A model generated the notes under the pieces. That model worked only from the letters and a program-made list of their open reading frames with translations, was not told where the DNA came from and did not search any database. Shown piece after piece: positions 1 through 21,961 of a DNA stretch of 32,000 nt. The translations under genes were made by a program, and so were the position numbers. Each line of letters opens with the position of its first letter. Positions within the stretch are counted from its first letter, which is position 1. The DNA lies in NCBI RefSeq assembly GCF_000007985.2, contig NC_002939.5, positions 2,220,001 to 2,252,000 on the forward strand. The letters run 5' to 3'. The stretch comes from Geobacter sulfurreducens PCA (GTDB taxonomy: Bacteria; Desulfobacterota; Desulfuromonadia; Geobacterales; Geobacteraceae).

Positions 1-2645
1 GTTTTTGTCTTGTTCTTCGTGTTCGACTTGAATAGCCAGCCAAGGACCGGAATATCCATCAGGAATGGTACCCCTCTGTCTTCATCAGTATCGCTGTCTA
101 CATAGATACCGCCAATTACGGTGGTTTCACCGTTCTTGACCAACAGTTCGGTGGTTGCCTCCTTCTTGTTAATCGGAGGCGGAGACCCGGTGCCAGCTGA
201 GTTGTTTGAGGCCTTAATCTTCATGGAAACGCTGCCGTCCGCTGTTATGTGAGGCGTTACTTCGAGTGTCAGCGCCGCCTCCACGAACTCGGTTTTGGTT
301 CCTTCGGCTGATGTGGTTTGATACGGTATCGACTGACCTTGCGAAATTTTCGCCGCTTTGTTGTTAAGCGTAACAACCTTGGGCGTCGAGACGATCTTAA
401 CAAGGCCTGCAACGGCTGCTGCCGACAACCGCAGATCAACCTGCAAGCTCCCCATTTTGGCAAAGCTGATCCCAACAGCACCGCCGGATGATGTTGCCGC
501 AGGGAAGCCGCTGGCCGGCGGCGGCGTTACGATCCCGCCGAATCCGGCATCAACGCTTCTGATAATATCAGCGCCGGAATCGTTGCTGTGTATGCCCCAC
601 TGGACCCCTAGATCACGAGTGAAGGTGGAGGTTGCTTCCACAATGCGCGCTTCGATGAGCACCTGCTTTTCAGGCAGATCAAGGTTCTTGAGCAGGATGC
701 GCATTTCAGCCAGGGCCGGCTCGATATCCTTCACGATTACCCGGTTGGTCCGCGCATCCTGGCTGATGGTCCCCCGCTCGCTCTTGACGGCGTTGAACTG
801 GGACACGATATCCCCCACCGCCGCAAAGTTGATGTCAAAGACCTCTGTCTTCAGCTCCATGCCCCGTTCCTTGGCCCGCTTGAGCGCCTGCTCCTCGTCA
901 GCCAGGGTCTGGATCTTGGATTTGGGACGAATCTGTACGATATTGCCGTCCCGCTGCATCCCCAGCCCCTTGTTCTCCAGAATGACATCAAGGGCCTGGT
1001 CCCAGGGAACGTTGACCAGTTTAAGGCTGATGGTGCCGGTAACGTCGTCGCCCACGAGGAAGTTGAGATTGCTGACCTCCGCAATCAGCTGGAATATCTT
1101 GCGGATGTCGGCATCGGAAAATTCAAGCGTCACGCGGCGCCCGGTATACGCCTTCTTCGTTCCACCCGACTGGGCGACACCGGCAAGCGGGTCGGTCTCC
1201 CTGGAGGGTTCCTTCTGCCGGACAGCGGCCTGATCCATGCCATCCTGAAGCGTGGGGGAGGCAGGCACATCCGCGACCGGGGGCTCAAAACCTTCTGGGT
1301 TCCGGACGCTCACCTGCAGCAGGTCCCCATCCCGCCTGACATCGTAGGATGCGGGCTGGCGGAGTTGCACTTGGATCTTTACGTCACTGCGCCCCTTCGT
1401 CTTCACCTGGTAGGGGGTAACCTTCTGAACGACACTGGCAAAAGCGCCCGTATCGAGATGACGCTGAAGCTTCTTGGGAAGGATGCAGTTTCTAAGCGTT
1501 ACGCTGAAGCCGTCGGCGGATTTGACCGGTTTGTCGTTGGCACAGGCGCCGGTGACGGCAACAGTGATACGTGAGGTCCCGTCAAGTACTTTGAACTCAA
1601 TGGCATCAACCGCGGGTGTTAAGCCCTTTGCCGGCTCGGCGGACTTCACCGCTTCCGGCTGCCGTGCCTGGGATGCCGAGGCGGACGGCTGCGGAGGGGC
1701 GGCAGCACGAGGTACGTCAACAACCTTGTCAGCCGGGGCAACAATCAGGCCAGCTGCACCTTTAGTTACATTGAGAGGAGAGAGGGTCCCCCCCGCAGCA
1801 TCGAGAACAATCCTGACCTTATCGGGATAAGCACCAATGCGGGCCATCCCTACACCGAGGGCATTCAGGGGAATAGCCTTGGAATTGATGCCGAGCCTGG
1901 CGTCCGAGATATCCACCACCAGCCGGTCGGGCTTGGCAAGGCGGAAGAACTTGAAGTCCTTGATCTCCCCGCTCGTTTCGATCACCAGGTAACCATTCTG
2001 CGCTTCGATGGCCTTGATGACCGGGGGGCCGGTCTGCGGAGCAACAACCGGAGCGATCGGAGCCTGAGGCTCCACGGCAACGGGAGCCGGAGCTACTGCC
2101 GGGGCTGCAGCGACTGCTACCGGGGCACCCGTAGAGCTCTCGCCGGCCTGGCCGGCAGCCGGTGCGGCTTCAACGGCAACGGAGGCGGCGGGCGCGACAG
2201 GACGAGCCACGGCAAGGACAAGCATTCCTTTGTCACTGGCGTCGATGGTCGCATTCGCCTCGGTGTCGCGTGTGAAATATACCTCCACACGGGTCATGGC
2301 CGTGGCACCCTCACCGTACCGCACGGTCTCGATACGCCGGATGGTATCGGAGTTCACGTCCATCGGCGACGCAATGGCGCCCGGTTCGGTGCGGGCCAGA
2401 TCGATGACCGCCTTGGGCGGATCTGCCGTTTTGTAGAACGTGTAGGCCAGGGGACGGTCGGCCGACAGTACGACACGGGCACCCTCACCTGTTTCCGCCA
2501 CCTTGATCTCACGCAGGACGCCCCCCTTGGCCTGCTCGACCATGGCGTCGCCCTTCACGCTGGAGTGAACGTCGGCGCATCCGCAGAACACAGCCAGCAG
2601 TGACATCAGGACGAGTTTCCGGGAGAATGTCGTCTGGATTCTCAT
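1..2645 (-). CDS. pilQ: Type IV pilus secretin PilQ; the C-terminal few codons run off the window edge
   Basis: The minus frame is open from ATG 2645 to position 1. It is absent from the ORF track because no stop lies inside the window. My translation starts MRIQTTFSRKLVLMSLLAVFCG. It includes AMIN-like segments such as VLREIKVAETGEGARVVLSADRPLAYTFYKTADPPKAVID. It ends with a classic secretin C-terminus, VKNGETTVIGGIYVDSDTDEDRGVPFLMDIPVLGWLFKSNTKNKTK. The gene lies 10 nt downstream of pilP. Confidence 0.9.
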   Translation of the reverse strand, partial: MRIQTTFSRKLVLMSLLAVFCGCADVHSSVKGDAMVEQAKGGVLREIKVAETGEGARVVLSADRPLAYTFYKTADPPKAVIDLARTEPGAIASPMDVNSDTIRRIETVRYGEGATAMTRVEVYFTRDTEANATIDASDKGMLVLAVARPVAPAASVAVEAAPAAGQAGESSTGAPVAVAAAPAVAPAPVAVEPQAPIAPVVAPQTGPPVIKAIEAQNGYLVIETSGEIKDFKFFRLAKPDRLVVDISDARLGINSKAIPLNALGVGMARIGAYPDKVRIVLDAAGGTLSPLNVTKGAAGLIVAPADKVVDVPRAAAPPQPSASASQARQPEAVKSAEPAKGLTPAVDAIEFKVLDGTSRITVAVTGACANDKPVKSADGFSVTLRNCILPKKLQRHLDTGAFASVVQKVTPYQVKTKGRSDVKIQVQLRQPASYDVRRDGDLLQVSVRNPEGFEPPVADVPASPTLQDGMDQAAVRQKEPSRETDPLAGVAQSGGTKKAYTGRRVTLEFSDADIRKIFQLIAEVSNLNFLVGDDVTGTISLKLVNVPWDQALDVILENKGLGMQRDGNIVQIRPKSKIQTLADEEQALKRAKERGMELKTEVFDINFAAVGDIVSQFNAVKSERGTISQDARTNRVIVKDIEPALAEMRILLKNLDLPEKQVLIEARIVEATSTFTRDLGVQWGIHSNDSGADIIRSVDAGFGGIVTPPPASGFPAATSSGGAVGISFAKMGSLQVDLRLSAAAVAGLVKIVSTPKVVTLNNKAAKISQGQSIPYQTTSAEGTKTEFVEAALTLEVTPHITADGSVSMKIKASNNSAGTGSPPPINKKEATTELLVKNGETTVIGGIYVDSDTDEDRGVPFLMDIPVLGWLFKSNTKNKTK

Positions 2646-2655
2646 GGGGGACTCC

Positions 2656-3204
2656 TTACTGTTTCTTCGCCAGAGAAAGCTTGACCGTCCGCTTTCTCAC
2701 CTTGCCGAAGTCATCGGTATATCGCTCGTTCACTTCCAGATACGAAGGTGCGATTTTGGTAATCACACCGTTATTGGCGCCGATACTCATGCCCTCTTTC
2801 ACCACGTAGCCCTTGCCAGCCGGATCAACGATGAGCGCCTTGCTTTCCTTGAGGCCGACGATAATGCCCGAAATCCTGAACTGTTCCACGTTGTAGCTCT
2901 GGATCGGCAACAGGCCGGCGGACGATCCCCGCACGGCACGGGTTTTCTCGGGAGCCTTGGCCTGAAGGAAGGGCTTGAACGGGTCGCGGCGGTTGGCGAA
3001 ATCGTACTGAGACAGACCCGCCACAGGGGCAATAGCGGCTGAGGTGGCTCGGCCCTGGACCGGAGGCTGTGCCTTGGGCGCAGGAGATGCCTTTTGAGGA
3101 GGTGGTGGAGGGGAAGGCGCCTGCTCCTTCTTTCCGCAGCCGGCCGAGACAAAGGTGAGAGCCACCAAAACGGCAAGAATCGGTATGCTATTTCTTCTTG
3201 TCAT
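2656..3204 (-). CDS. pilP: Type IV pilus assembly lipoprotein PilP
   Basis: This uses the ORF-track frame 2656..3429, with the start moved to the internal ATG at 3204. The product begins MTRRNSIPILAVLVALTFVSAGC, a signal peptide with an SAGC lipobox. A Pro-rich linker and a C-terminal beta domain follow. The start overlaps the pilO stop by 17 nt, and the gene sits between pilO and pilQ. Confidence 0.85.
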   Translation of the reverse strand: MTRRNSIPILAVLVALTFVSAGCGKKEQAPSPPPPPQKASPAPKAQPPVQGRATSAAIAPVAGLSQYDFANRRDPFKPFLQAKAPEKTRAVRGSSAGLLPIQSYNVEQFRISGIIVGLKESKALIVDPAGKGYVVKEGMSIGANNGVITKIAPSYLEVNERYTDDFGKVRKRTVKLSLAKKQ

Positions 3205-3784
3205 CCTTGGTCTCTTTCTTTTCGATGAAGCGGAAGGTCGTGGCCAGACAGTTGACCTTGACAGTGGTCTTGCCACCCACGGGCTTGATGTCAGTGAACG
3301 ATACGTTTGTAATGTTGACGATCCTCGGCAGGTTACCGACGGCGGTAAAGAAATTCGCCACTCCGTAGAACGATCCCGATACAGAGATATCGACCGGCAC
3401 TTCGGCATAGAAGTCCTTGGGCACTTCACCCTTGGGCCTGAAGAGGAGAAAATCGAGACCGGCTCCTTTGCCTACGCTGGTAATCCCCGTGAGCAGCGAG
3501 GGGATCTCCTTCTGGTTGGGCAACTCGGTTAGGGCGTTCTCCAGATCCTTCTGCAGTTGCTGATACTCCTTTTTCAGCTTGGGCAGGTTGTTGGCGATCC
3601 GGGTCTTTTCCTGGACCTCGGTCTGGAGTTTTTCAAGCTTTCCGCGCAGTGCCGTAAGCTCCTTCTGGCGGGGGGCATACAGGCCCCAATACAGGGCTGC
3701 CCCTTCAACCACAAGAATCGCCGCAAGGAGAGCTAGCTTCTGTTTATTGGGGAGCTTGAGCAGTTTTTCTATTCTCGCGTCCAT
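3188..3784 (-). CDS. pilO: Type IV pilus inner-membrane alignment protein PilO
   Basis: 198 aa. There is one N-terminal TM helix (LALLAAILVVEGAALYWGLY) followed by a coiled-coil (KELTALRGKLEKLQTEVQEK) and a C-terminal globular part. The order is the conserved pilN-pilO-pilP. Confidence 0.85.
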   Translation of the reverse strand: MDARIEKLLKLPNKQKLALLAAILVVEGAALYWGLYAPRQKELTALRGKLEKLQTEVQEKTRIANNLPKLKKEYQQLQKDLENALTELPNQKEIPSLLTGITSVGKGAGLDFLLFRPKGEVPKDFYAEVPVDISVSGSFYGVANFFTAVGNLPRIVNITNVSFTDIKPVGGKTTVKVNCLATTFRFIEKKETKDDKKK

Positions 3785-3821: not shown

Positions 3822-4397
3822 TTACTTTTTCTTTGCCGGCGCGGGCTCTTCTTTTTTCAGAGCCTTTATGACACAGGTGAGCTCGAACCGTTTCGCCTTC
3901 ACACCGCCGATTTCGGTCTGCTCGGAGACGATCAACTCAACATTTGTGTAGTCTTCAGTTTGTTGGAGATTACGCATAAAGGCGGCGATCAGATCCTCGT
4001 CCACTGCGACACCGCCGATACTGACGTTCGGACCGTTCTCAGAATATTTGGTGAGCCAGAGCTTCTCCGGCGTCGCATCACTGAGCGTAGCGAGACGGCG
4101 CACGGGGCCGGTCTTTTCCTTGCGCAGCTGGGTAAGCACATTAAGCTTCTTGGTAACATCATCCTTCAGCTTTTTGATATTTTCGAGCTCGCCGATTTTC
4201 CCCTTGAGCCGTTGCAACTCGCTTTCCGCACCGGAGATGTCGTTCTTGGTCGCCTTGATCTTTGCCTGGGCGTAGCCGAACAGGCCGACGCCGATACCGA
4301 GAACCACCAGCACCGATACGAGCAGAATCGCCATCTGCTGCCTGGCTGTTTCCTTCTTTTTGGACGATCTGACCGGAAGCAGGTTGATCCTTACCAT
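3822..4397 (-). CDS. pilN: Type IV pilus assembly protein PilN
   Basis: 191 aa. It has the canonical PilN N-terminus MVRINLLPVR, a single TM helix (MAILLVSVLVVLGIGVGLF) and a coiled-coil. The start overlaps the pilM stop by 7 nt. Confidence 0.9.
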   Translation of the reverse strand: MVRINLLPVRSSKKKETARQQMAILLVSVLVVLGIGVGLFGYAQAKIKATKNDISGAESELQRLKGKIGELENIKKLKDDVTKKLNVLTQLRKEKTGPVRRLATLSDATPEKLWLTKYSENGPNVSIGGVAVDEDLIAAFMRNLQQTEDYTNVELIVSEQTEIGGVKAKRFELTCVIKALKKEEPAPAKKK

Positions 4398-5446
4398 TTG
4401 TCACCCACCCTCCTCGTGGCCAGCCCCACGGCAACCGTCACGAGCGGCCCGATCTCCCGAAGGTACTCGGGATCGAACTCTTTCTCGCTGCAGGTGATTT
4501 TCGTAAGTGGGTCCAGCATCTCAACCGGAACGCCCAGCTTGTTCTGCACGGTTTCAGCAAGCATGGCGGTCTTGGCTGCGCCTCCACTCAGGTATACCCT
4601 GGCGATTCGCCCTTCGCCCGCGGTTGTGTTGTAAAAATCGAGCGAACGGCGCATCTCCACGGCAAGGGTTTCGTTAACGCGGGCGATGACATCCTTCAGC
4701 TTGGCCTTGTCGGGGTACTCGCCGGTGATCTTTACCTGCTCGGCTTCTTCGCTGCTCAAGGCGAACTGCTTCTGGATCTCCTCAGTGAAGAGATTTCCGC
4801 CCACCTGTACATCCCGGGTAAAGAGGGAGCTCCCTCCCCTGACGATATTGAGGTTCAGAATACTTGCGCCGACATTGATAAGCGCCACAACCTCTTCGGG
4901 ATCGGTTTCGTAGTTGAGTTCGAAGGCGTTCTGGACGGCAAAGGAATCCACATCGACGATCACGAGTTTGAGACCTGTCTCGGCAAACACATTGACGTAA
5001 TCGTTGATGATTTCCTTCTTGCTCGCCACGAGAAGGACATTCATGCGGGACGGGTCGTCCTCGTCGGGCTCCAGAATCTGGAAGTCAATGTTCACATCGT
5101 TGATATCGAAGGGGATGTACTGCTCCGCTTCCCACTGGATCTGGTCTTCCAGTTCTTCCGGGGTCATGGCCGGGAGCTTGATCTTGCGGATGATGACCGT
5201 GTTCCCGGAAATGGAGCACGCCACATCCTTGACCTTGACGGAGAGCCCCTTCATGAGCCCCTTGACCGCCTCGATCACGGATGAACTATCCATGAGAGTG
5301 TTATCGACAATGGCCTCGGGAGGCAGGGGCTGGATGCCGATATTGACCAGCTGCCATCCCCCCTTCTGCTCCTTGAGCTGAACGAGCTTCACGGAGCTGG
5401 AGCCGATATCGATGCCGACGATTTCTTTCTTTTTGGAGAAAAGCAT
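4391..5446 (-). CDS. pilM: Type IV pilus assembly ATPase-fold (actin-like) protein PilM
   Basis: This uses the ORF-track frame 4391..5548, with the start placed at ATG 5446. The product begins MLFSKKKEIVGIDIGSSSVKLVQL, a typical PilM N-terminus with the phosphate-1 motif. ATG 5455 is an alternative start. The gene lies 20 nt downstream of the xre stop. Confidence 0.9.
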   Translation of the reverse strand: MLFSKKKEIVGIDIGSSSVKLVQLKEQKGGWQLVNIGIQPLPPEAIVDNTLMDSSSVIEAVKGLMKGLSVKVKDVACSISGNTVIIRKIKLPAMTPEELEDQIQWEAEQYIPFDINDVNIDFQILEPDEDDPSRMNVLLVASKKEIINDYVNVFAETGLKLVIVDVDSFAVQNAFELNYETDPEEVVALINVGASILNLNIVRGGSSLFTRDVQVGGNLFTEEIQKQFALSSEEAEQVKITGEYPDKAKLKDVIARVNETLAVEMRRSLDFYNTTAGEGRIARVYLSGGAAKTAMLAETVQNKLGVPVEMLDPLTKITCSEKEFDPEYLREIGPLVTVAVGLATRRVGDKW

Positions 5447-5466: not shown

Positions 5467-5667
5467 TCAGTCGATAAACACCGCGTCCTTTTCGGACAAT
5501 GAAAAACCAAGAGCAAGCAGAATCTTTCTCTTGGTTTCCATGCGGCACTCCTCGCCGCGCTCGATTCTCTCTATGGTTGCCGGGGAGACGCCCGCGAGCC
5601 GTGCCAGTTCGGCCTTGCTCATGAGCCGTTCTTCCCTGATCTTCTTCACGTTGTTTCGGTATTTCAT
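5467..5667 (-). CDS. Small XRE/Cro-C1-family helix-turn-helix protein (66 aa)
   Basis: MKYRNNVKKIREERLMSKAELARLAGVSPATIERIERGEE is a typical HTH_3 core. The start is set at ATG 5667. The longer in-frame ORF (to 5877) runs through AT-rich leader and the riboswitch terminator, so I reject it. Confidence 0.75.
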   Translation of the reverse strand: MKYRNNVKKIREERLMSKAELARLAGVSPATIERIERGEECRMETKRKILLALGFSLSEKDAVFID

Positions 5668-5875
5668 TGCATTGTCCCGAAAAATTGTATGATTCAACGC
5701 GAAATCTACCGGAATTGAATCTAAAGTCAAGTAATTAGTTACACTTGAAACAAATTGAAATCTTTTATGCGAAATTGACATCAATAGTGTATCTATCGGC
5801 GGAACAACAGGAAAACTTGAGGATAATTTCACGGTGGTCATGCGTCGCTGCCTCGCTCCGGCATCGGACCCGGGC

Positions 5876-5927
5876 AAAAGAAAAGCCGGGGCCGACTATC
5901 ACGGTGGTGATATTTCGGCAACCCGGC
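5876..5927 (-). terminator. Intrinsic terminator that serves as the riboswitch expression platform
   Basis: An interrupted 17-bp hairpin pairs 5885-5890 with 5922-5927, 5891-5895 with 5915-5919, and 5897-5902 with 5907-5912. On the minus strand it is followed by UUUUCUUUUG. Its 5' arm is shared with the 3' part of the aptamer. Confidence 0.75.
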
Positions 5928-5990
5928 TGTCTCGGTGAGACCCTGTAGGCTTTCCGCCCCATCCTCACGGATGGTTTAGTATTATCGATA
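5909..5990 (-). promoter_or_regulatory. GEMM-I-class cyclic-dinucleotide riboswitch aptamer (cGAMP-type, A at the Vc2 G20-equivalent)
   Basis: The minus-strand RNA reads GAUAAUACUAAACC-AUCC-GUGA-GGAU-GGGGCGGAAAGCC-UACAGGGUCUCACCGAGACAGCCGGGUUGCCGAAAUAUC. From memory, this matches the GEMM-I core layout: AAACC, a 4-bp helix with a GNRA loop, GG, then RCGSAAAGCC. P1 is GAUA/UAUC. Confidence 0.8.
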
Positions 5991-6031
5991 TCGATCAGTA
6001 TTCGGTTGTGGCGTGCTGCTTGGCAGTTAGC

Positions 6032-6047
6032 AGCAAAAATGACGCCA
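6032..6047 (-). promoter_or_regulatory. Candidate sigma-54 (-24/-12) promoter upstream of the riboswitch
   Basis: The minus strand reads TGGCGTCATTTTTGCT. The GG and GC are spaced exactly as in the consensus TGGCACG-N4-TTGCW. The site lies about 40 nt upstream of the aptamer. Confidence 0.5.
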
Positions 6048-6187
6048 GCTTCGTTAGCACAAGATACTTAACGGCGTACGCCGTCATTTCGTGCCGTTAC
6101 ACTCCGCATCGAGCCCTCTCCCTGTCCCAGGTTCGTCACAAGGTCGAATTTTTGGCAGCAGCGGTGACGTAAACCGGCACTGGATCG

Positions 6188-6859
6188 TCAATAGGCATAG
6201 AGCACCGAGATGGCGGCCTTCTCGTTCGGGTTGCTCTCGCGCTCGCCCTCGATTTCCACCGTGTACAGATAAGGGTTAACGGTTCCCGGCCCCTGGATGC
6301 CAGAGTCAGAACCTGCCGTAACACCGCCGGTGAAGAGGTTGAGGTTCGAGGTATTGGTGATCCCCTGGCGGGTATCGATGATTTTGGCGTTGACCTTGAA
6401 TTCTGGTTTATCACCCGTGTCCTTGAGGACAAAAGACATGTCAGGAAAAATCTTGGGATTTTCCGTGCGCTGCTCATCGGCACAACTGGTCCACTGATCC
6501 GTGGAGAGAGACAGTTTCTGACGCAAGCAGTCCGACTCGTCGGAGACCTTGAGATCCACGGCGCCAAGGCGTGTTTCAATAGTGGTTATGTCGGTCTGGA
6601 AGGAGGCCAAGGTCGGAGAATCGACAGCGGTCCTGACGAGCTCCGGAAGGAGATCCCGCATGGTGAGATCCAACCCGCCGTAGGTGGCTTCAAGGCTGTT
6701 CTGGTAGCGTTTCTGGGCCGACGAAAGCCTGGTCCCCTGGGTGACAAGGTAGAGGACCACCATGATAATGACCAGCGACATGAGGGTAAGCATAAGTGCC
6801 GTGACCAGCGCCACCCCCCGTTCGTTGCGGAGAAGTCCCATGGAACACCGTCCGTTCAT
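6188..6859 (-). CDS. pilX: Type IV pilus minor pilin PilX-like protein
   Basis: The PilX-type hydrophobic N-terminus is RNERGVALVTALMLTLMSLVIIMVVLYLV, with no G/F-E5 cleavage motif. It is the last gene of the fimU-pilV-pilW-pilX set. The start at 6859 gives a TGATG overlap with the pilW stop. ATG 6841 is an alternative. Confidence 0.75.
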   Translation of the reverse strand: MNGRCSMGLLRNERGVALVTALMLTLMSLVIIMVVLYLVTQGTRLSSAQKRYQNSLEATYGGLDLTMRDLLPELVRTAVDSPTLASFQTDITTIETRLGAVDLKVSDESDCLRQKLSLSTDQWTSCADEQRTENPKIFPDMSFVLKDTGDKPEFKVNAKIIDTRQGITNTSNLNLFTGGVTAGSDSGIQGPGTVNPYLYTVEIEGERESNPNEKAAISVLYAY

Positions 6860-8040
6860 CAGTAGTTTCCCAGGTTCTTGGGAAGGACTATGAAGGAATA
6901 GACCTTCCAGCGGTAATTCCGCCAGTTGTTTATGGTGGCGAGGTCGAATTCCCTGCCAAAGGGCGTTGTGCCGATTATATAGCCCACCATCACCTTCTGC
7001 TGGGGATAGCTGAAACCCGGGTCCCGCGCCCCCTCATGGGCCAGAACAAATACCTCGATTTCCTTGAGCTGTCGGCGAACATCAGTCAGCTCAGACGGGC
7101 TTTCGAGATCGTTCTGATGGAGATCCACGGAACCGTCTCCATTCGTGTCGAGGCCGAAGACCACCTGAAAATCAGCCACACAATCAAGCAGAGGCATCTT
7201 GATTAACTCGCCGTCGTCCTGGCGGACAACGGCCTTGTAGAGAACCCCCACCTTGCTGTCGTCGGCACAACGCATGGCGATATTGGCCGGACGCTCCACG
7301 AAGAAATCGGCGCGGTTGAACGGCATCCGCACGCTGGAGGCAGTATCCAGCCCGTAGATGAAAAAGAAGGGGGACTTGCTCGCCATGGGGTAGTTATCGG
7401 GGGAAAAGTGGCGCAGATGTTTCGTATTTCCGATAGCTGCTGAATAATTGGCAAAAAATTCGCTGCCATTGACAACCAGCTCCCTGCCGGCGGCACTGGG
7501 ATCATCGGCCTGGAAGCGGGGATTGATGACCACGACGCTGTCCGAGCTGGCAAACTGCGACAACGGGTTATCGGACTGCCAGGGACGCGCACTGCCTGTT
7601 CCCATGTGGGACGATTTGCCCGAGGCATCGTTGCGGGCCGCCATGGCGGACTTGACGACCAGGTAGTCAGTGCCGTTCAGCCCGGCGTCGTCGCCGATGC
7701 GCAAAGGCCAGGGAACGCCCGAGGGAGCATCGTTATAACCGGCGGCCGTTGCATCCTCGGCCTCTTCGTAGGTGATGGCACTCTGGAACGACCAGGGAAG
7801 CGCATAGCCGGCATGCTCGATATCGTAGCGCAGGGTTTCGAGTCCGGCGACCTCCATGATCTGCCCCTCGGCCAGCCGGGACTGCTTGCCCGAATGGGTG
7901 AGCAGCGTATTGAAGGCGCTCCCGGCCAAGGCCATGACTCCCACAAAAACGGCCATGACCACGATCAGCTCAACCAGGGAGAATCCCCGGTCGTCCCGCG
8001 CCCTTCGAGTAACTGTATTGGATTCGGTCTGCGTCCTCAT
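6859..8040 (-). CDS. pilW: Type IV pilus minor pilin PilW-like protein (393 aa)
   Basis: The prepilin N-terminal motif is RG|FSLVELIVVMAVFVGVMALAG. The start is set at ATG 8040 (MRTQTESNTVTRRARDDRGFSLVEL), just after the pilV stop at 8049. Position and size are consistent with PilW. Confidence 0.8.
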   Translation of the reverse strand: MRTQTESNTVTRRARDDRGFSLVELIVVMAVFVGVMALAGSAFNTLLTHSGKQSRLAEGQIMEVAGLETLRYDIEHAGYALPWSFQSAITYEEAEDATAAGYNDAPSGVPWPLRIGDDAGLNGTDYLVVKSAMAARNDASGKSSHMGTGSARPWQSDNPLSQFASSDSVVVINPRFQADDPSAAGRELVVNGSEFFANYSAAIGNTKHLRHFSPDNYPMASKSPFFFIYGLDTASSVRMPFNRADFFVERPANIAMRCADDSKVGVLYKAVVRQDDGELIKMPLLDCVADFQVVFGLDTNGDGSVDLHQNDLESPSELTDVRRQLKEIEVFVLAHEGARDPGFSYPQQKVMVGYIIGTTPFGREFDLATINNWRNYRWKVYSFIVLPKNLGNY

Positions 8041-8048
8041 GTGGGCCC

Positions 8049-15755: not shown

Positions 15756-17123
15756 TTAATCGATGCCGAATTCCTTGAGCTTGTAGAGCAACGCCCGATG
15801 GCTGATTTCCAGCAAACGCGCGGCATGGGTCCTGTTCCCGCCGGTTTTGGCCAGGGCTCTGCGGATGAATTCCCGCTCAAGGCACTCTTCGGCCCGCTTG
15901 ATGGAAAGGGTATCCTCGGGCAGGTGGAACCCCGCCGCCGATGCGGCCGAGTCTCCCCGCACAACATCGGGCAGGCTTCCGGCATCGAGGATTTCTCCGT
16001 CGCTGAGAATGAACGCGCGCTCAATGCAGTTTTCAAGTTCTCGCACATTGCCGGGCCAGCCATAGGCAGCAAGCAGCTTCATGGCCTCCGGCGACACGAC
16101 CATTCCGGACCGGCCGAAAGACTCACCGTACTTGTGCAGGAAGTGGTTCACGAGTAGAGGGATGTCTTCCAACCGCTCCCTCAGGGGAGGCAGGGTAATG
16201 GCGAACACATTGAGGCGGAAAAAAAGGTCCTCGCGAAAACGCCCCTCCGCGGCATCCCGGGCCAGATCCCGAGAGGTGGCGGAAATGATCCGGACATCGA
16301 CGCGCTGGGCTTTGGATCCGCCCACTCGCCGGACCTCACCCTCCTGCAGTACGCGCAAAAGCTTCACCTGGAGCGCCGGGGGCATTTCACCGATCTCGTC
16401 GAGAAAAAGCGTCCCGCCGTTGGCCTCCTCGAAAAGCCCGGCGCGGTCCGACGAGGCATCGGTAAAGGCGCCGCGAACGTGACCGAACAGTTCCGACTCC
16501 AGAAGGCTTTCGGGAATTGCGCCGCAGTTGACCGCCACAAAGGGTCCGTCACTGCGGCTGCCGTTATGGTGGATGGCCCGCGCCACCAGCTCCTTGCCGG
16601 TTCCCGACTCGCCGAGGATGAGAACGGTGGTCCGCACGTCGCACACCTTGCGGATAAGGTTGAAGATCTCGCGCATGCGCGGGTTACGGCTTACAATGCT
16701 GCCGAACGCATACTCTCGCCCCACCACTTCCCGCAACCGGCGGTTTTCATTTTTAAGTCGCTCGCGCTCCTCCGCCTTCCTGAGGACCAGCAGGATCTCG
16801 TCGTTTTTAAACGGTTTCGAAACGTAATCGTAGGCCCCTTCCTTCATGCAGGCGATGGCGGCATCCACGGTACCATAGGCGGACATCATGATAACGGTGC
16901 CGGGGAGTTCGGCCTTCTGAAAGGTCCGCAGAAACCCGACACCATCCATGATCGGCATCCGGATGTCACAGAGGATAAAGTCGTAGGCAGCAGCGGATGC
17001 CTGGGCCAGGGCCGCTTCGCCATCGGCGGCCTCCACCGCCTCGTAGCCCTGCTTGCGGAGCATGGCGCACAGCATGTGCCTCATGTTTTCTTCGTCGTCG
17101 ACGACCAGTATCCGCTTTTTCAT
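15756..17123 (-). CDS. NtrC-family sigma-54-dependent response regulator (REC-AAA+-Fis HTH)
   Basis: The receiver is [17 protein letters not shown] ... [14 protein letters not shown]. The Walker A is GESGTGKE. The L1 loop reads GAFTDA. The R-finger region is [10 protein letters not shown]. The C-terminal HTH is [23 protein letters not shown]. The start is ATG 17123 (MKKRILVV). Confidence 0.9.
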
Positions 17124-17159
17124 CTCATACCCCTCGCCCATAACCCATTGTATTTCATT

Positions 17160-18734
17160 TCATTTCGAGACTGGAAGCCATATCTCGAACCGCGATCCTT
17201 CGCCCACCGCACTTTCGACCGTCATTCTCCCGCCAAGAGAATCAACTATCCTGGCCGAGATGGATAGCCCCAGTCCGGTCCCCCTGCCCGGCTCCTTGGT
17301 GGTAAAAAAGGGGTCGAAGATCCTCTCCAGGTGCTCGGGCGCGATTCCCGACCCGGTGTCGGTCACGGCAATCCGGATACACGGCACCTCGCTCCCGTCC
17401 CCGGCAAACGGTGTGCGGAACACACCGCCGAAGTCATCCTTGCGCCGGCCGGCCATAACAGACCAGCGACCGCTGTCTGGAAGCCCTGCCGGCGGCATGA
17501 ACGCTCCGGTCGATACGGCGACATCCAGGCGGCCACCGTCGGGCATGGCGTCACGGGCATTGATCAGCAGGTTGATCAAAACCTGTTGGAGCTGATGCGG
17601 ATCGGTCACGGCCACAGCACTCCCCTCGCCAGCCCCGATGTGCACCTGAACCCGTTTGAGGGCTCCCTGCCGGCTTACCATCTCCACAGTTTCAGCCACC
17701 AGGGCGACCACGTCAACCTCTTCGGCGGCAAGGGGCACGGGGCGGGCATAATCGAGCAGGTCGTGAACGATCCGGTCGATCCGTTCGGTCTCATGCTGAA
17801 TTCGACGGAGATAGTCGGCCCTTTCCGGATCAAGGGATTCATCATCCCGCAAGAGTGATACGTACCCCATGATGGCTGCCAGCGGGGTGCCGATCTCGTG
17901 GGCCGTCCCAGCGGCCAGCATTCCCACCGACGCCATTTTTTCGGATCTGAGGGTTTCTTCGCGGGCCTCCTTGAGCTCCCGGTTGGCCCGCTCCAGCGAG
18001 GTCACGTGGCGCACCGCTTCTTCATCCTTGACCCGCAGGGCGTCCACCATCTGGTTGAATGAATCGGCCAGTTCGGCTATCTCACGGCTCCCCGGAACCG
18101 CGGCCTTATGGTGATAGTCGCCGGCGCCGATCCGCTCCGTTGCGGCCAGAAGCTTGCGCATGGGGATGATGATGAAGCGGGAAAGCAGCAGTGACCCCAC
18201 CGCCAGAAGGAGAAGGAAATCGAGGGCGAAGTAGGCGAGGAACAGGTGACGCGAATGGGCGAGCATCTGCCGCTCCCCCGCCAGGGAAAGGACGAGCCTG
18301 GCCGCGCCAACGGTCGCCCCCTCACGGATGATTGGGGCATAGCGAATGAGGACGCCCTCCCCCGCAGGGAGCCAGACCGATTCGGCGCCGTCGCGAAGAC
18401 AGGCCGCCAGACGCTCGTCAGCGGGTGAACCGGCACCCAGAGCGAACACCGGTGCTCCGTCACCCCGCACAACGGCCAGGGCCGTGAATTCCGGTTCTCC
18501 CGCCAGCTGGCGGGCAAGTACGCCGGCCGCCGAAGAACCTATCCCGTCCAGCGACGGGGGAACCAGCGCGGTGAAAGACGCGAGCAGGATACGCGCCTTG
18601 TCGCTTTTCTGGCGAAGGAGGTCGCTTTCGGCGGTCTTGAACGAGATCAGGCTCAGGAGAAACCAGGTAAGAACCAGGAGGAACGTAAGGGAAGAGAGGA
18701 TCAGGAAGCTGAGACTGAAGCGCAGACGCCTCAC
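17160..18734 (-). CDS. Membrane sensor histidine kinase (2 TM, periplasmic loop, HAMP, HisKA, HATPase_c)
   Basis: The HAMP segment is PMRKLLAATERIGAGDYHHKAAVPGSREIAELADSFNQMV. The H-box is GTAHEIGTPL. The N-box is LLINARDAM. The G-boxes are DTGSGI and GTGLGLSI. The start is GTG 18734, with GAGGTG 5 nt upstream, 12 nt after the pilD stop. Confidence 0.9.
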   Translation of the reverse strand: MRRLRFSLSFLILSSLTFLLVLTWFLLSLISFKTAESDLLRQKSDKARILLASFTALVPPSLDGIGSSAAGVLARQLAGEPEFTALAVVRGDGAPVFALGAGSPADERLAACLRDGAESVWLPAGEGVLIRYAPIIREGATVGAARLVLSLAGERQMLAHSRHLFLAYFALDFLLLLAVGSLLLSRFIIIPMRKLLAATERIGAGDYHHKAAVPGSREIAELADSFNQMVDALRVKDEEAVRHVTSLERANRELKEAREETLRSEKMASVGMLAAGTAHEIGTPLAAIMGYVSLLRDDESLDPERADYLRRIQHETERIDRIVHDLLDYARPVPLAAEEVDVVALVAETVEMVSRQGALKRVQVHIGAGEGSAVAVTDPHQLQQVLINLLINARDAMPDGGRLDVAVSTGAFMPPAGLPDSGRWSVMAGRRKDDFGGVFRTPFAGDGSEVPCIRIAVTDTGSGIAPEHLERIFDPFFTTKEPGRGTGLGLSISARIVDSLGGRMTVESAVGEGSRFEIWLPVSK

Positions 18735-18746
18735 GGGTGCACCTCG

Positions 18747-19526
18747 CTACCGGGCGCCGATGCTCAGGTACCAGAGAATGATCGCCTTGCCGAAAAAGAT
18801 GTAGAGAAGTGCCCCCAGCGCCAGGAACGGGCCGAACGGGATGGCAAGCTTGCTATCTTTTTTCTGGAGCATCATGAGTGTGAGCCCGATGACCGAGCCC
18901 ACCAGAGAGCTGGCAAAGATGATGAACGGCACCGCCCGCCAGCCGAGAAAGGCCCCCATCATGGCAAGAAGCTTGATGTCACCTCCGCCCATTCCCTCCT
19001 TGCCCGTCAGCCGCTCGTAGAGCCAGGCAACCAGCAGGAGGCTCCCTCCCCCCGCCGCGATGCCGATGAGGGAATTGAGCCAGCCGAGCCAGGGCAGAAA
19101 GAACGACAGGACAAATCCAAGAACGATTCCCGGGAGGCTGATGACATCGGGGATGATCTGATGGTCGAGGTCAATGAAGGAGATCGCCACCAGGGCGGAG
19201 CAGAATACGAAGAGGGCCGCAAAGGTCAGGGTCGGCCCGAACTTGAGGAACAGGGCGAGGCAGAGCAAGCCGTTGATAAGTTCAACCAGGGGATAGCGAG
19301 CCGAGATCTTTGCCCTGCAGGCGCGGCATGCTCCGCGCAGGATGAGCCAGCTCAGAATAGGGATGTTGTCCCAGGGACGAATCCGCGTCCCGCAGGAGGT
19401 GCAGCGGGAAGGAGGAAACACGACCGACTCACCCGTTGGCAGCCTATAAATGCAGACGTTCAGGAATGAGCCGACCACTGCCCCGAGGACAAAGGAAAAA
19501 AGATAGAACACTATCGGTAGCGTCAT
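18747..19526 (-). CDS. pilD: Prepilin peptidase / N-methyltransferase PilD (A24 family)
   Basis: The sequence includes GSFLNVCIYRLP, the Zn-type pair CTSCGTRIRPWDNIPILSWLILRGACRACRAKI, and multiple TM segments with the GGGDIKLLAM catalytic Asp box. Confidence 0.9.
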   Translation of the reverse strand: MTLPIVFYLFSFVLGAVVGSFLNVCIYRLPTGESVVFPPSRCTSCGTRIRPWDNIPILSWLILRGACRACRAKISARYPLVELINGLLCLALFLKFGPTLTFAALFVFCSALVAISFIDLDHQIIPDVISLPGIVLGFVLSFFLPWLGWLNSLIGIAAGGGSLLLVAWLYERLTGKEGMGGGDIKLLAMMGAFLGWRAVPFIIFASSLVGSVIGLTLMMLQKKDSKLAIPFGPFLALGALLYIFFGKAIILWYLSIGAR

Positions 19527-19582: not shown

Positions 19583-21871
19583 TCAGCACCAGGTTCCGAA
19601 ACCGAGGTAGGCGCCCGCGGCCCGGCCGAAGACCGGCGCGAACTGCTCCGCCGGCGCGGGGCGGCTGAAGAGGTGTCCCTGCATGTGGGTGCACTGCAGC
19701 GCTCGCAGCACTTCCAGTTGCTCCACGGTTTCAACACCTTCGGCAACCACTTTCAGATTGAGCCCCTTTGCCATGGTGATCACCGCGCTGGTAATTGCCT
19801 CGTCGTCAGGGTTCGTTGTGATGTCGCGAATGAACGAACGGTCGATCTTCAGGGCATGGATCGGAAACTTTTTCAGATAGTGCAGGGATGAATATCCAGT
19901 ACCGAAATCATCAATGGCGATATGGATTCCCATTCGCTCCAGCACGCGGAAGGTGGCCAAGGTGCTTTCGGTGCCGTCCATCATGATGCTCTCCGTCACT
20001 TCCAGCACGAGCCACCGGGGGGCGAGCCCCGAATCGGAGAGTGCCCGCTCCACCACATCCACCAGATTCCCCTGTTGGAGCTGGCGGGGAGAAATGTTAA
20101 CCGCCACCTGCATTGGTGGGTAGCCGGCCTTTTGCCACTCCCGGTTCTGGCGGCACGCGGTCCTCAACACCCATTCGCCCAGGGGAACGATGAGCCCCGT
20201 TTCTTCCGCGAGGGGGATGAAGCGCGCCGGCGGCACGAGCCCCATGGTGGGGTGCTGCCAGCGGACCAGGGCCTCCATGCACGAGATTTGCCCGTCCTCA
20301 ACGTTGACCTTGGGCTGATAGTAGAGCACCAGCTCTTCCCGCTCAAGCCCCTTGCGCAGGTTGTTTTCAAGAGAAAGCCGCTCGAATGCCTTGCTGTTCA
20401 TCTCAGGGGTGTAGAGCTGGCAGTTGTTCCGCCCCTGCTCTTTGGCCCGATACATGGCAAAATCGGCGTTCTTCACCAAGGCGTCGCTCGTGCGGCCATC
20501 GTAGGGAAACACGCTGATGCCGATGCTCGTGGTGATGAACAACTCGTGCCCATCAATGACGAAGGGGGTCCGCAGGCTGTCGATAATCTTCTGGGCCACT
20601 TTCAGGGCATCTTTCACGTCGGAAATGACCGACAGATTGATGATGAATTCGTCGCCCCCCTGCCGGGCCACGGTGTCGCCGTCGCGGCGACAGACCCCCT
20701 TGAGGCGCTTGGCCACCTGCATGAGGAGCTTGTCTCCCACCGCATGCCCGAGGGTATCGTTGATCAGCTTGAACCGGTCCAGATCGAGAAACAACACTGA
20801 CAGAAGGCGCTTGTTCCGCTGTGCCAGGGCAAGGGACTGGCGGAGCCGGTCGTTGAAGAGCCTGCGGTTGGGCAGTCCGGTAAGCGAGTCATAGTACGCC
20901 ATCTGCCGGATGGTTTCCTCGGCCTGGCGACGATCAGTGATATCGCGGAACGCCTCGATGATCCCGATGGCTACGCCGTCGCTGCCGAGCAGCGGAGACG
21001 TCATAACCTCCACCACGCGCTTGTCCCCGCTCCGGTCGCGATGCTCCTGGGTGGCAATAACCGGACGCTTCGCCGTCCGTACATCGAGCAGGGGGCACTG
21101 CATCCCCTCCTCCCTGACGCAGGGGGTATCGCGATGGTGAATAAGTCGATGGCAGGCCTCGTCACTGCCGACGTCGGATATCTGGAAAAAGTCGCGAGCC
21201 GCCCGGTTCGTCATGATGACACGGCGATCGAGCCCGACCACCACCATGGGCTCGGCCACACCGTCAACCACGGAATTGAGGAAGACATTGGTTTCGGCCA
21301 GCTTCTGCTCGGCCCTGGTGCGCTCATCGTTTTCCTCTTCGAGCATGGCGGCGTGGTGCCGCAGATCGACCATGAGGCGAACGGTGCGCAGTACCATGGA
21401 TGCGGTATGGGCATACTGCTGAAGAAGCTGCTCGTCGATCTGGTCGAACGGATTGCCAACCCGGAACGCGGACAGACAGGCCGTAACCCTGCCTTCTTCC
21501 AGGACGGGGACCAGAACCGCCGCATCCATGTCCATCACCTGCAAGAGTTCGCAGGAGTCAGTGCGGGAGGATATCTGGTCGATCCGCAGGGGAGTACCGC
21601 AGGCGGCCACTGATGCGCACAGATTCCCGCTCTTCATGGGGACTGCCAGCCCTTTCACCATGGCATTCCAGCCCCCGGACGCGGCCATGTAGGTCAGGGT
21701 ACCGGCCTGCATATCGATGGTGGTGAAGACGGCGGTACCGGCCCCCACGATGTCGCAGACACCGTCGCAGAGGGCTGTGTAGAGTTCGTTCGACTCACCA
21801 ATGGTCAGCAGTCGCCTGATCCAGAGATCCAGCTTGAACAGGCCATCATTATATCGCTTGAGATTCGCCAT
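19583..21871 (-). CDS. GAF-PAS-GGDEF-EAL cyclic-di-GMP turnover protein
   Basis: The GGDEF domain shows YYDSLTGLPNRR, INDTLGHAVGD, the I-site RDGD and GGDEFI. The EAL domain shows EALVRW, EVTES, DDFGTGYSSL, KIDRSF and EGVET. Confidence 0.9.
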   Translation of the reverse strand: MANLKRYNDGLFKLDLWIRRLLTIGESNELYTALCDGVCDIVGAGTAVFTTIDMQAGTLTYMAASGGWNAMVKGLAVPMKSGNLCASVAACGTPLRIDQISSRTDSCELLQVMDMDAAVLVPVLEEGRVTACLSAFRVGNPFDQIDEQLLQQYAHTASMVLRTVRLMVDLRHHAAMLEEENDERTRAEQKLAETNVFLNSVVDGVAEPMVVVGLDRRVIMTNRAARDFFQISDVGSDEACHRLIHHRDTPCVREEGMQCPLLDVRTAKRPVIATQEHRDRSGDKRVVEVMTSPLLGSDGVAIGIIEAFRDITDRRQAEETIRQMAYYDSLTGLPNRRLFNDRLRQSLALAQRNKRLLSVLFLDLDRFKLINDTLGHAVGDKLLMQVAKRLKGVCRRDGDTVARQGGDEFIINLSVISDVKDALKVAQKIIDSLRTPFVIDGHELFITTSIGISVFPYDGRTSDALVKNADFAMYRAKEQGRNNCQLYTPEMNSKAFERLSLENNLRKGLEREELVLYYQPKVNVEDGQISCMEALVRWQHPTMGLVPPARFIPLAEETGLIVPLGEWVLRTACRQNREWQKAGYPPMQVAVNISPRQLQQGNLVDVVERALSDSGLAPRWLVLEVTESIMMDGTESTLATFRVLERMGIHIAIDDFGTGYSSLHYLKKFPIHALKIDRSFIRDITTNPDDEAITSAVITMAKGLNLKVVAEGVETVEQLEVLRALQCTHMQGHLFSRPAPAEQFAPVFGRAAGAYLGFGTWC

Positions 21872-21945: not shown

Positions 21946-21961
21946 TGCAAAATTCCATCCA
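21946..21961 (-). promoter_or_regulatory. Weak candidate sigma-54 promoter upstream of the GGDEF-EAL gene
   Basis: The minus strand reads TGGATGGAATTTTGCA. The GG/GC spacing is correct and the -12 TTGCA is perfect, but the -24 is degenerate (TGGAT). It lies about 75 nt upstream of ATG 21871. Confidence 0.3.

Follow-up and report, generated by a model that had tools for sequence, protein, structure and literature searches.

On the minus strand of the Geobacter sulfurreducens genome, a riboswitch precedes xre-pilMNOPQ, a set of type IV pilus assembly genes. Its position raises three questions: which ligand it senses, how it switches, and whether it alone controls the operon. We addressed these questions in a 32,000-nucleotide (nt) stretch of the strain PCA genome (NC_002939.5, positions 2,220,001 to 2,252,000), here called the window. 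An original prediction, made from the sequence of the window alone, had described the element as a GEMM-I-class riboswitch with a cyclic GMP-AMP (cGAMP)-type signature and an ON-switch terminator gating xre-pilMNOPQ. We conclude with high confidence that the element is GSUR3013, a GEMM-Ib riboswitch that senses 3',3'-cGAMP and acts as a kinetically controlled transcriptional ON-switch, likely adding a cGAMP-dependent increment to the expression of xre-pilMNOPQ.

G. sulfurreducens is electroactive, and the element ties the assembly of its type IV pilus machinery to cGAMP signaling, a link that bears on extracellular electron transfer and surface attachment. This link has already been published: the riboswitch has been annotated, GacA-dependent expression has been measured, and an ortholog has been dissected at single-nucleotide resolution. 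Since its ligand class, switching logic and physiological regulon are all in the literature, the element itself is not new. Possibly new, and modest in scope, are three points suggested by the DNA around it: a sigma-70-type promoter past the terminator, a sigma-54-type motif upstream of the aptamer, and an apparent insertion of the riboswitch module before an ancient xre-pilMNOPQ unit.

The element upstream of xre-pilMNOPQ is GSUR3013

The minus-strand letters of 5995..5866 agree with those transcribed in the original prediction, although the ends assigned to that string were slightly off: it begins with the GAUA at 5986 rather than at 5990, and its last G is position 5875. To place the window in published coordinates, we used GSU2033, an XRE family regulator with a reported translation start at 2232354 and stop at 2232154 (PMC6456294, Supplementary file 1). 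These positions correspond to 5667 and 5467 in the window and fix the offset between the two numbering systems. The element listed in the same file (eLife, 2019) as “GSUR3013 (GSU2033)” at 2232561-2232679 (-) maps to window positions 5874-5992; it is the same element as the window riboswitch, with no difference in the RNA. GSUR3013 is annotated in the genome as a cyclic diguanylate (c-di-GMP)-responsive riboswitch (PMC6456294, Supplementary file 1), whereas later work treats it as a member of GEMM-Ib, the cGAMP-type subclass of GEMM-I. PMC8835794 (Table S1) names GSU2033 as one of 13 genes with a GEMM-Ib riboswitch, a set whose cGAMP binding it describes as characterized; G. sulfurreducens has 17 GEMM-I riboswitches in all (PMC6456294).

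The identity of the locus is further supported by exact matches of the GSU2033 cloning primers, at 5841..5822 (-) and 5470..5488 (+), and by two Logan contigs that match the window over 5.1 kb with zero mismatches. PilN of the window is identical to a protein in both CP010430.1 and AP017912.1, which the literature assigns to G. sulfurreducens AM-1 and YM18, respectively. The leader sequence is also identical in these two strains.

A GEMM-Ib aptamer with adenine in place of Vc2 G20

We scanned the whole window with cmscan against Rfam 15 at gathering thresholds. The sole match was to RF01051 (c-di-GMP-I), at 5990..5914 (-), with a score of 48.0 bits and E = 1.3e-6. The match is untruncated, covering model positions 1-87 of 87, and its score lies above the gathering score of 35 that had been set beforehand as the test of GEMM-I membership. 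Four blocks align to the RF01051 model, namely AAACC, P2 with its GNRA cap, G(G)CGGAAAGCC and GCCGGGUUGCCGAA. We number the aptamer after nt 1-84 of the G. metallireducens pilM riboswitch, so that nt 1 is window position 5992 (Table 1). A covariance model specific to this locus scores the window aptamer at 111.7 bits. Some G. sulfurreducens operons are preceded by tandem aptamers, but neither Rfam nor the locus-specific model detected a second one in the window.

Position 11 of the RF01051 model, a consensus G that is unpaired, precedes the first P2 pair and is equivalent to G20 of the Vibrio cholerae Vc2 riboswitch, aligns to A at 5980. The original prediction had singled out this base as its cGAMP-type signature, and we find the A invariant in all ten orthologous leaders of our alignment, which includes the published G. 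metallireducens sequence. For cGAMP selectivity, an A at this position is required but does not suffice on its own. The equivalent base recognizes the adenine of cGAMP (PMC5888326). In the adjoining lower part of P2, the pairs C14-G39 and U15-G38 do not vary among the 10 sequences and match exactly those of the G. metallireducens pilM RNA; point mutations in this region shift the preference for c-di-GMP or cGAMP (PMC9262584). The remaining pocket residues, A40-A42 and C75, are present and likewise invariant across the ten orthologs.

Per column, aptamer identity over the ten leaders is 92%. Its predicted base pairs are formed in 94.8% of alignment cells, versus 36-47% when the partners are slid. 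P2 shows covariation: the 22-31 pair varies among U-A, C-G and U-G, and 24-29 is C-G except in one locus (L016), where it is U-A, while the tetraloop is GUGA or GCGA and thus an invariant GNGA. P3 is nearly invariant, making the covariation test uninformative either way for this helix.

The register of P1 is ambiguous between two alternatives. The 5' sequence GAUAUCGAUA holds two GAUA motifs, at 5986..5983 and 5992..5989. The original prediction had paired the first of these with the 3' UAUC; the motif lies where it was placed, but the pairing is one of two that are possible. In this register (7-10/81-84), the third pair (9-82) is a C-A mismatch in five of the ten orthologs, including the one studied experimentally. 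The other register (1-5/80-84) shows one compensatory change (A5-U80, in L037) and four mismatches at the last pair, 5-80. The core P1 pairs are invariant in both registers, and covariation does not separate them. Nuclear magnetic resonance (NMR) on the G. metallireducens ortholog shows that P1 forms solely with ligand bound (PMC9262584).

Aptamer and terminator are mutually exclusive

Overlapping the 3' end of the aptamer is an intrinsic terminator with a 5' arm at 5927..5907 and a 3' arm at 5902..5885. The minimum free energy fold of 5995..5868 is dominated by this hairpin, followed by the U-tract UUUUCUUUU, and the leader has a folding z-score of -4.0 relative to dinucleotide shuffles, with 0/200 shuffles folding as well. 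The terminator 5' arm corresponds to aptamer nt 66-86. It comprises the P3 3' strand, GCCGGGUU, which is common to both structures, together with C75 (5918) and the P1 3' strand UAUC. Because the terminator takes up these three elements, the aptamer and the terminator are mutually exclusive, in agreement with the original prediction. The proposed ON-switch architecture is also borne out. In 10/10 leaders the 5' arm of the terminator is the invariant 3' strand of the aptamer, and the 3' arms diverge in sequence yet stay complementary to it and are followed by a U-rich tract; moreover, the same architecture has been shown experimentally in the 92%-identical G. metallireducens RNA (PMC9262584).

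Nearest-neighbor energies assign -42.9 kcal/mol to the terminator-containing fold, versus -17.8 to -19.0 kcal/mol to the aptamer secondary structure. The terminator is therefore far more stable than the aptamer, and the decision between them must be kinetic and ligand-dependent. In a simple simulation of transcript growth, the base of P3 is lost at a length of 100 nt, and C75-G101 is formed from a length of 102 nt.

These results suggest a model in which transcription from an upstream, probably sigma-54-type promoter near 6047..6032 would produce the 84-nt aptamer (5992..5909). While the transcript is ~77 to 100 nt long, cGAMP made by GacA would bind it and lock the P3 3' strand, C75 and the P1 3' strand in the aptamer. 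With ligand bound, the 17-bp terminator could not nucleate, and RNA polymerase would read through into xre-pilMNOPQ. With no ligand, the emerging 3' arm (5902..5885) would instead invade P1, C75 and P3, so that the terminator would form and transcription would stop at the U-tract (5884..5876).

Translational control was considered separately and rejected: the xre start codon lies ~210 nt past the terminator, and no pairing with the xre ribosome-binding site is apparent.

Comparison with characterized GEMM-I riboswitches

The G. metallireducens pilM riboswitch, an ortholog at the same locus, has been studied by NMR, isothermal titration calorimetry and kinetic modeling (PMC9262584; NAR, 2022). 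It is a transcriptional ON-switch with exclusive aptamer and terminator folds, and others have shown both its cGAMP binding and its binding window. It binds cGAMP with a dissociation constant (Kd) of 0.25-0.44 µM once the transcript is 84-93 nt long, is competent to bind at 77-101 nt, and no longer binds at 102 nt, where C75 becomes paired with G102 (PMC9262584). The Kd belongs to the G. metallireducens RNA, to which the G. sulfurreducens RNA is likened by sequence. The two share 77/84 aptamer positions, 85% identity over the whole leader, and a terminator design that uses the P3 and P1 3' strands. The published residue numbers apply directly to the window RNA (U15-G38, C37, G66, C75, aptamer end at 84). 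The seven aptamer substitutions fall at positions 9, 26, 31, 36, 57, 59 and 72. Position 26 makes the tetraloop GUGA here rather than GCGA, position 31 gives a U-A instead of a U-G pair, and positions 57 and 59 lie in the P3 loop. The terminator loop is 1 nt shorter in the window RNA, with the effect that C75 pairs with G101 and not with G102.

A second reference is Gs1761 (GSU1761; PDB 4YAZ, cited in PMC5888326), a GEMM-Ib RNA of the same organism and subclass with a paralogous sequence at a different locus. Its ligand contacts A14 (to Aα), C75 (to Gβ, Watson-Crick) and A41 (PMC5888326) correspond to A13 (5980), C75 (5918) and A41 (5952) of the window RNA, a correspondence set by the published description rather than by alignment. 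Gs1761 is reported to bind with an affinity of 0.5-1 nM, far tighter than the 0.25-0.44 µM of the G. metallireducens pilM ortholog (PMC5888326, PMC9262584).

With Vc2, the archetype of RF01051, the window RNA shares the GNRA-capped P2, P3, the AAACC...G(A/G)CG(C/G)AAAGCC core, an intercalating A and a C whose partner is the guanine of the ligand. In place of the G20 found in Vc2, which binds c-di-GMP, it carries A, and its lower P2 has the pairs C-G and U-G where the RF01051 family consensus has G-C and C-G. Vc2 is also described as a translational switch in a passage of PMC9262584, whereas the window RNA carries an intrinsic terminator.

Expression of the operon responds to cGAMP in vivo

Others have shown cGAMP-dependent expression in G. 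sulfurreducens in vivo (PMC6456294), and these published RNA sequencing data support the cGAMP control of xre-pilMNOPQ proposed in the original prediction. In ΔgacA, a mutant of the cGAMP synthase, the riboswitch RNA, GSU2033 and pilMNOPQ are down 2.2- to 3.4-fold, with pilM-Q down 2.7- to 3.4-fold. The same transcripts are up 1.3- to 3.5-fold in ΔesnD, a mutant in which c-di-GMP is lowered and cGAMP raised (PMC6456294; Table 1). The rise in a strain with lowered c-di-GMP argues against c-di-GMP as the activating ligand.

The riboswitch appears restricted to one lineage

Using a PilM query, we fetched 80 loci of other species. Nine of these, L007-L012, L016, L037 and L045, carry the aptamer ahead of xre-pilM; all nine are from Geobacteraceae, G. 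hydrogenophilus among them. At the Rfam gathering level it was not found upstream of pilM in the other Geobacteraceae loci. Nor was it found in Desulfuromonadaceae or Myxococcota loci with the narrow locus-specific model, which very divergent GEMM-I RNAs could escape; L043-L086 were scanned with this model only, not with Rfam.

The operon itself is far more widespread. In nearly all of the 80 loci, which range from Geobacter to Anaeromyxobacter and Myxococcaceae, the gene immediately before pilM encodes a 66-amino-acid (aa) Cro/C1-type helix-turn-helix (HTH) protein (55-89% identity), and this arrangement is conserved independently of the presence of the riboswitch. Since it extends to Myxococcota, the xre-pilMNOPQ unit appears to be ancient and the riboswitch a lineage-restricted addition.

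Putative promoters flank the switch

Between the terminator and xre lies a sequence resembling a sigma-70-type promoter (Table 1), in which CTTGAC is invariant in all riboswitch-bearing loci. The pattern TTGACn-N15-18-TAnnnT recurs ~57-71 nt upstream of xre in 30/41 Geobacteraceae/Desulfuromonadales loci, and the majority of these are without the riboswitch. The putative promoter takes the form TTGACa-16/17 nt-TAnAnT, within L007-L050 as well as the window, in loci with and without the riboswitch alike. Most simply, this would be the ancestral promoter of the operon, with the riboswitch controlling transcripts that start further upstream. Because a conserved promoter of this type lies downstream of the terminator, the switch probably adds read-through to xre-pilMNOPQ rather than solely gating it. 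Of the “gating” named in the original prediction, control by cGAMP thus stands and sole control probably does not. Additive logic of this kind would fit the modest 2- to 3-fold effect on pilMNOPQ in vivo, and two promoters, if real, would explain how it differs from the 10- to 16-fold effect seen for other GEMM-Ib operons (PMC6456294).

The Rockhopper start for GSU2033, at 2232431 (window 5744), differs from the ~5696 expected from the sigma-70-type promoter; being a coverage-based boundary, it was used neither for nor against this assignment. In Desulfuromusa-like loci, the promoter upstream of xre has a perfect TATAAT. Tandem TTTCAA repeats just upstream of the -35 box are conserved in the window and L007-L011, and partly in L037 (alignment A5, columns ~180-197). 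These repeats may serve as an operator, and Xre itself is perhaps the protein that binds them.

On the other side of the switch, the -24/-12 motif TGGCGTCATTTTTGCT is probably the riboswitch promoter. The GC element of this sigma-54-type motif is 40 nt upstream of aptamer nt 1, and in 7/9 loci with upstream sequence a motif of the same type occurs 30-83 nt before the aptamer, amid DNA that is otherwise unalignable. Given a background of 0.0127 motifs per 160-nt stretch, this recurrence has P ~2e-12, or ~7e-9 after collapsing two closely related pairs. A possible extension, which we put forward tentatively, is that the riboswitch serves as one input of a two-promoter logic, in which the signal of an enhancer-binding protein and cGAMP would form an AND gate, atop an ancestral sigma-70 promoter that would predate the riboswitch and be shared with relatives lacking it. 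The sigma-54 promoter would perhaps be driven by an NtrC-type activator, its transcripts reaching xre-pilMNOPQ solely in the presence of cGAMP, and the riboswitch-plus-sigma-54 module would have been inserted recently, in one Geobacter subclade. To our knowledge, such two-promoter logic has not been described previously.

The window as a whole holds four exact TGG-N8-TTGCW matches, versus 2.0 expected, a count that is not significant alone. Three of the four are intergenic and correctly oriented (6032-6047, 14934-14949 and 21946-21961, all on the minus strand), a suggestive placement. The match at 14934-14949 precedes a small signal-peptide open reading frame ahead of a 1898-aa PilY1-like gene, and that at 21946-21961 precedes a GAF-PAS-GGDEF-EAL gene. 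The pilus cluster also encodes an NtrC-type sigma-54 activator of 461 aa, ~10 kb upstream of the switch (receiver, Sigma54_activat and HTH_8; 15756-17141 (-)), and a HAMP histidine kinase of 524 aa (17160-18734 (-)). These two proteins are candidate drivers of the sigma-54-like promoters.

Alternative explanations

A canonical c-di-GMP-sensing GEMM-I riboswitch, in which c-di-GMP rather than cGAMP turns on pilMNOPQ, would agree with the name of the matched Rfam family, c-di-GMP-I, and with the annotation of GSUR3013 as cyclic diguanylate-responsive. The omcST riboswitch of G. sulfurreducens answers to both ligands, and cGAMP riboswitches can also bind c-di-GMP through a protonated adenine (PMC9262584). 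We nonetheless regard c-di-GMP sensing as very improbable, given the replacement of G by A at the G20 equivalent in all orthologs, the lower P2 C-G and U-G pairs shared with the cGAMP-binding G. metallireducens pilM RNA, and the listing of GSU2033 as a GEMM-Ib gene (PMC8835794). Moreover, GSUR3013 and GSU2033 are up 2.9- to 3.5-fold in ΔesnD, where c-di-GMP is lowered, and down in ΔgacA (PMC6456294); a c-di-GMP ON-switch would be expected to change in the reverse sense. Some observations do weigh against the cGAMP-switch reading. PMC8835794 gives 12 aptamers that bind cGAMP but 13 GEMM-Ib genes, so that binding by the GSU2033 RNA is uncertain, and capture on cGAMP-Sepharose did not enrich GSU2033 transcripts, though none of the 13 were enriched (PMC8835794). 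The in vivo effect is modest, about 2- to 3-fold (PMC6456294), and the putative promoter conserved downstream of the terminator would mean that the switch is not the sole input to the operon. Finally, pilO-Q drop slightly further in ΔgacA (log2 -1.6 to -1.75) than do xre and the riboswitch RNA (log2 -1.1 to -1.25), an asymmetry that read-through alone does not explain, and part of the effect may therefore be indirect.

One indirect route would run through Xre: the riboswitch would control GSU2033, whose product would act on the sigma-70-type promoter, for example at the TTTCAA repeats, and amplify the signal, making the cGAMP effect on pilMNOPQ largely indirect. The position of xre as the first gene after the switch, the conserved repeats abutting the -35 box, and the larger ΔgacA fold-change of pilO-Q relative to the riboswitch or xre RNA would all fit. 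The gradient in ΔesnD is the reverse, however, with proximal genes rising more (xre log2 +1.8, or 3.5-fold; pilQ log2 +0.4, or 1.3-fold), and xre also precedes pilM in almost all of the 80 loci, most without a riboswitch, which implies a role for Xre that is independent of cGAMP. We consider this route unlikely to account for most of the effect; it would in any case be an addition to a direct cGAMP switch and not an alternative to it. A little less likely still is that the minor-pilin/PilY1 operon upstream uses the element chiefly as a conditional 3' end: the terminator would close that operon and cGAMP would couple it to pilMNOPQ, with no dedicated riboswitch promoter and with pilMNOPQ otherwise transcribed from its own sigma-70-type promoter. 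The upstream gene on the same strand ends at 6188, ~200 nt before the aptamer, and the sole terminator-like site between the two (6086..6069) is weak; the conserved promoter downstream of the riboswitch, and expression of pilO-Q in excess of the riboswitch RNA (PMC6456294), point the same way. The recurrence of the sigma-54-type -24/-12 motif 30-83 nt upstream of the aptamer in 7/9 loci, amid unalignable flanks, argues instead for a dedicated promoter. A role as a 3' end would also change only the source of the transcript and leave the switching mechanism as it is.

Features of the locus and the surrounding pilus cluster

The downstream genes are those named in the original prediction: Pfam identifies the Xre HTH protein, PilM, PilN and PilO, and gene calls on identical contigs identify PilP and PilQ (Table 1). 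For GSU2033, a 124-aa form (ATG at 5841) was used for cloning in PMC2817479. The extension in this older form, 5668-5841 (-), would run through the conserved promoter region and has no conserved counterpart in the orthologs. The 66-aa form starting at 5667 is supported, and is the one called in current NCBI genomes.

Table 1. Features of the GSUR3013 switch and the downstream operon in window coordinates. Expression values (wild type/ΔesnD/ΔgacA) are from PMC6456294, Supplementary file 1.
Feature	Position	Strand	Basis or remark	Expression
Sigma-54-type -24/-12 motif, candidate promoter feeding the riboswitch	6032..6047	-	exact TGG-N8-TTGCW	
GSUR3013	5874..5992	-		44/126/20
GEMM-Ib (cGAMP-type GEMM-I) aptamer, 84 nt	5909..5992	-	part of GSUR3013; RF01051 and 77/84 identity to G. 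metallireducens pilM	
A13, equivalent to Vc2 G20 (A14 in Gs1761 crystal numbering)	5980	-	RF01051 alignment; invariant in 10 orthologs	
P2 helix: C14-G39, U15-G38, then 6 bp; GUGA (GNRA) tetraloop 5968..5965	5954..5979	-	100% of cells paired	
A41 of invariant AAA (A40-A42)	5952	-	equivalent to intercalating A47 of Vc2 and A41 of Gs1761; role per PMC5888326	
P3 helix, nt 42-73	5920..5951	-	90-96% of cells paired; sequence almost invariant	
C75, equivalent to Vc2 C92; pairs with ligand guanine	5918	-	invariant; role per PMC9262584, PMC5888326	
Intrinsic terminator hairpin, 17 canonical bp (6+5+6), loop CACC	5885..5927	-	pair enumeration; hairpin in all 10 orthologs	
Terminator U-tract	5876..5884	-	U-rich tract kept in all orthologs	
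Tandem TTTCAA-N4-TTTCAA repeats just upstream of -35 box; possible regulator site	5745..5760	-	alignment A5	
Putative sigma-70-type promoter, TTGACT-16 nt-TAGATT, downstream of terminator, ~63 nt upstream of xre ATG	5703..5730	-	consensus and conservation	
xre (GSU2033), 66-aa Cro/C1-type HTH regulator, first operon gene	5467..5667	-	Pfam HTH_3, 3e-10	57/200/24
pilM (GSU2032)	4391..5446	-	Pfam PilM_2, 3e-87	138/293/52
pilN (GSU2031)	3822..4397	-	Pfam PilN, 4e-21	116/204/40
pilO (GSU2030)	3188..3784	-	Pfam PilO, 3.5e-49	370/536/120
pilP (GSU2029)	2656..3204	-	PF04351 gene call on near-identical contig L001, mapped to window	403/616/120
pilQ secretin (GSU2028), 3' end beyond window start	1..2645	-	AMIN, STN, Secretin gene call on L001, mapped	436/575/131

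Upstream of the riboswitch, minor-pilin/PilY1 genes occupy 6188-14599 (-) and 15077-15727 (-) on the same strand. They encode a 223-aa protein without a Pfam match, three proteins (417, 177 and 178 aa) that carry prepilin-type N-terminal methylation motifs, and an unusually long protein of 1898 aa that has a C-terminal PilY1 beta-propeller and is mostly without a Pfam match, together with a 216-aa prepilin-like gene product. The same gene cluster includes a 762-aa GAF-PAS-GGDEF-EAL cyclic-dinucleotide turnover protein (19583-21871 (-)), whose gene adjoins that of the prepilin peptidase PilD (18747-19526).

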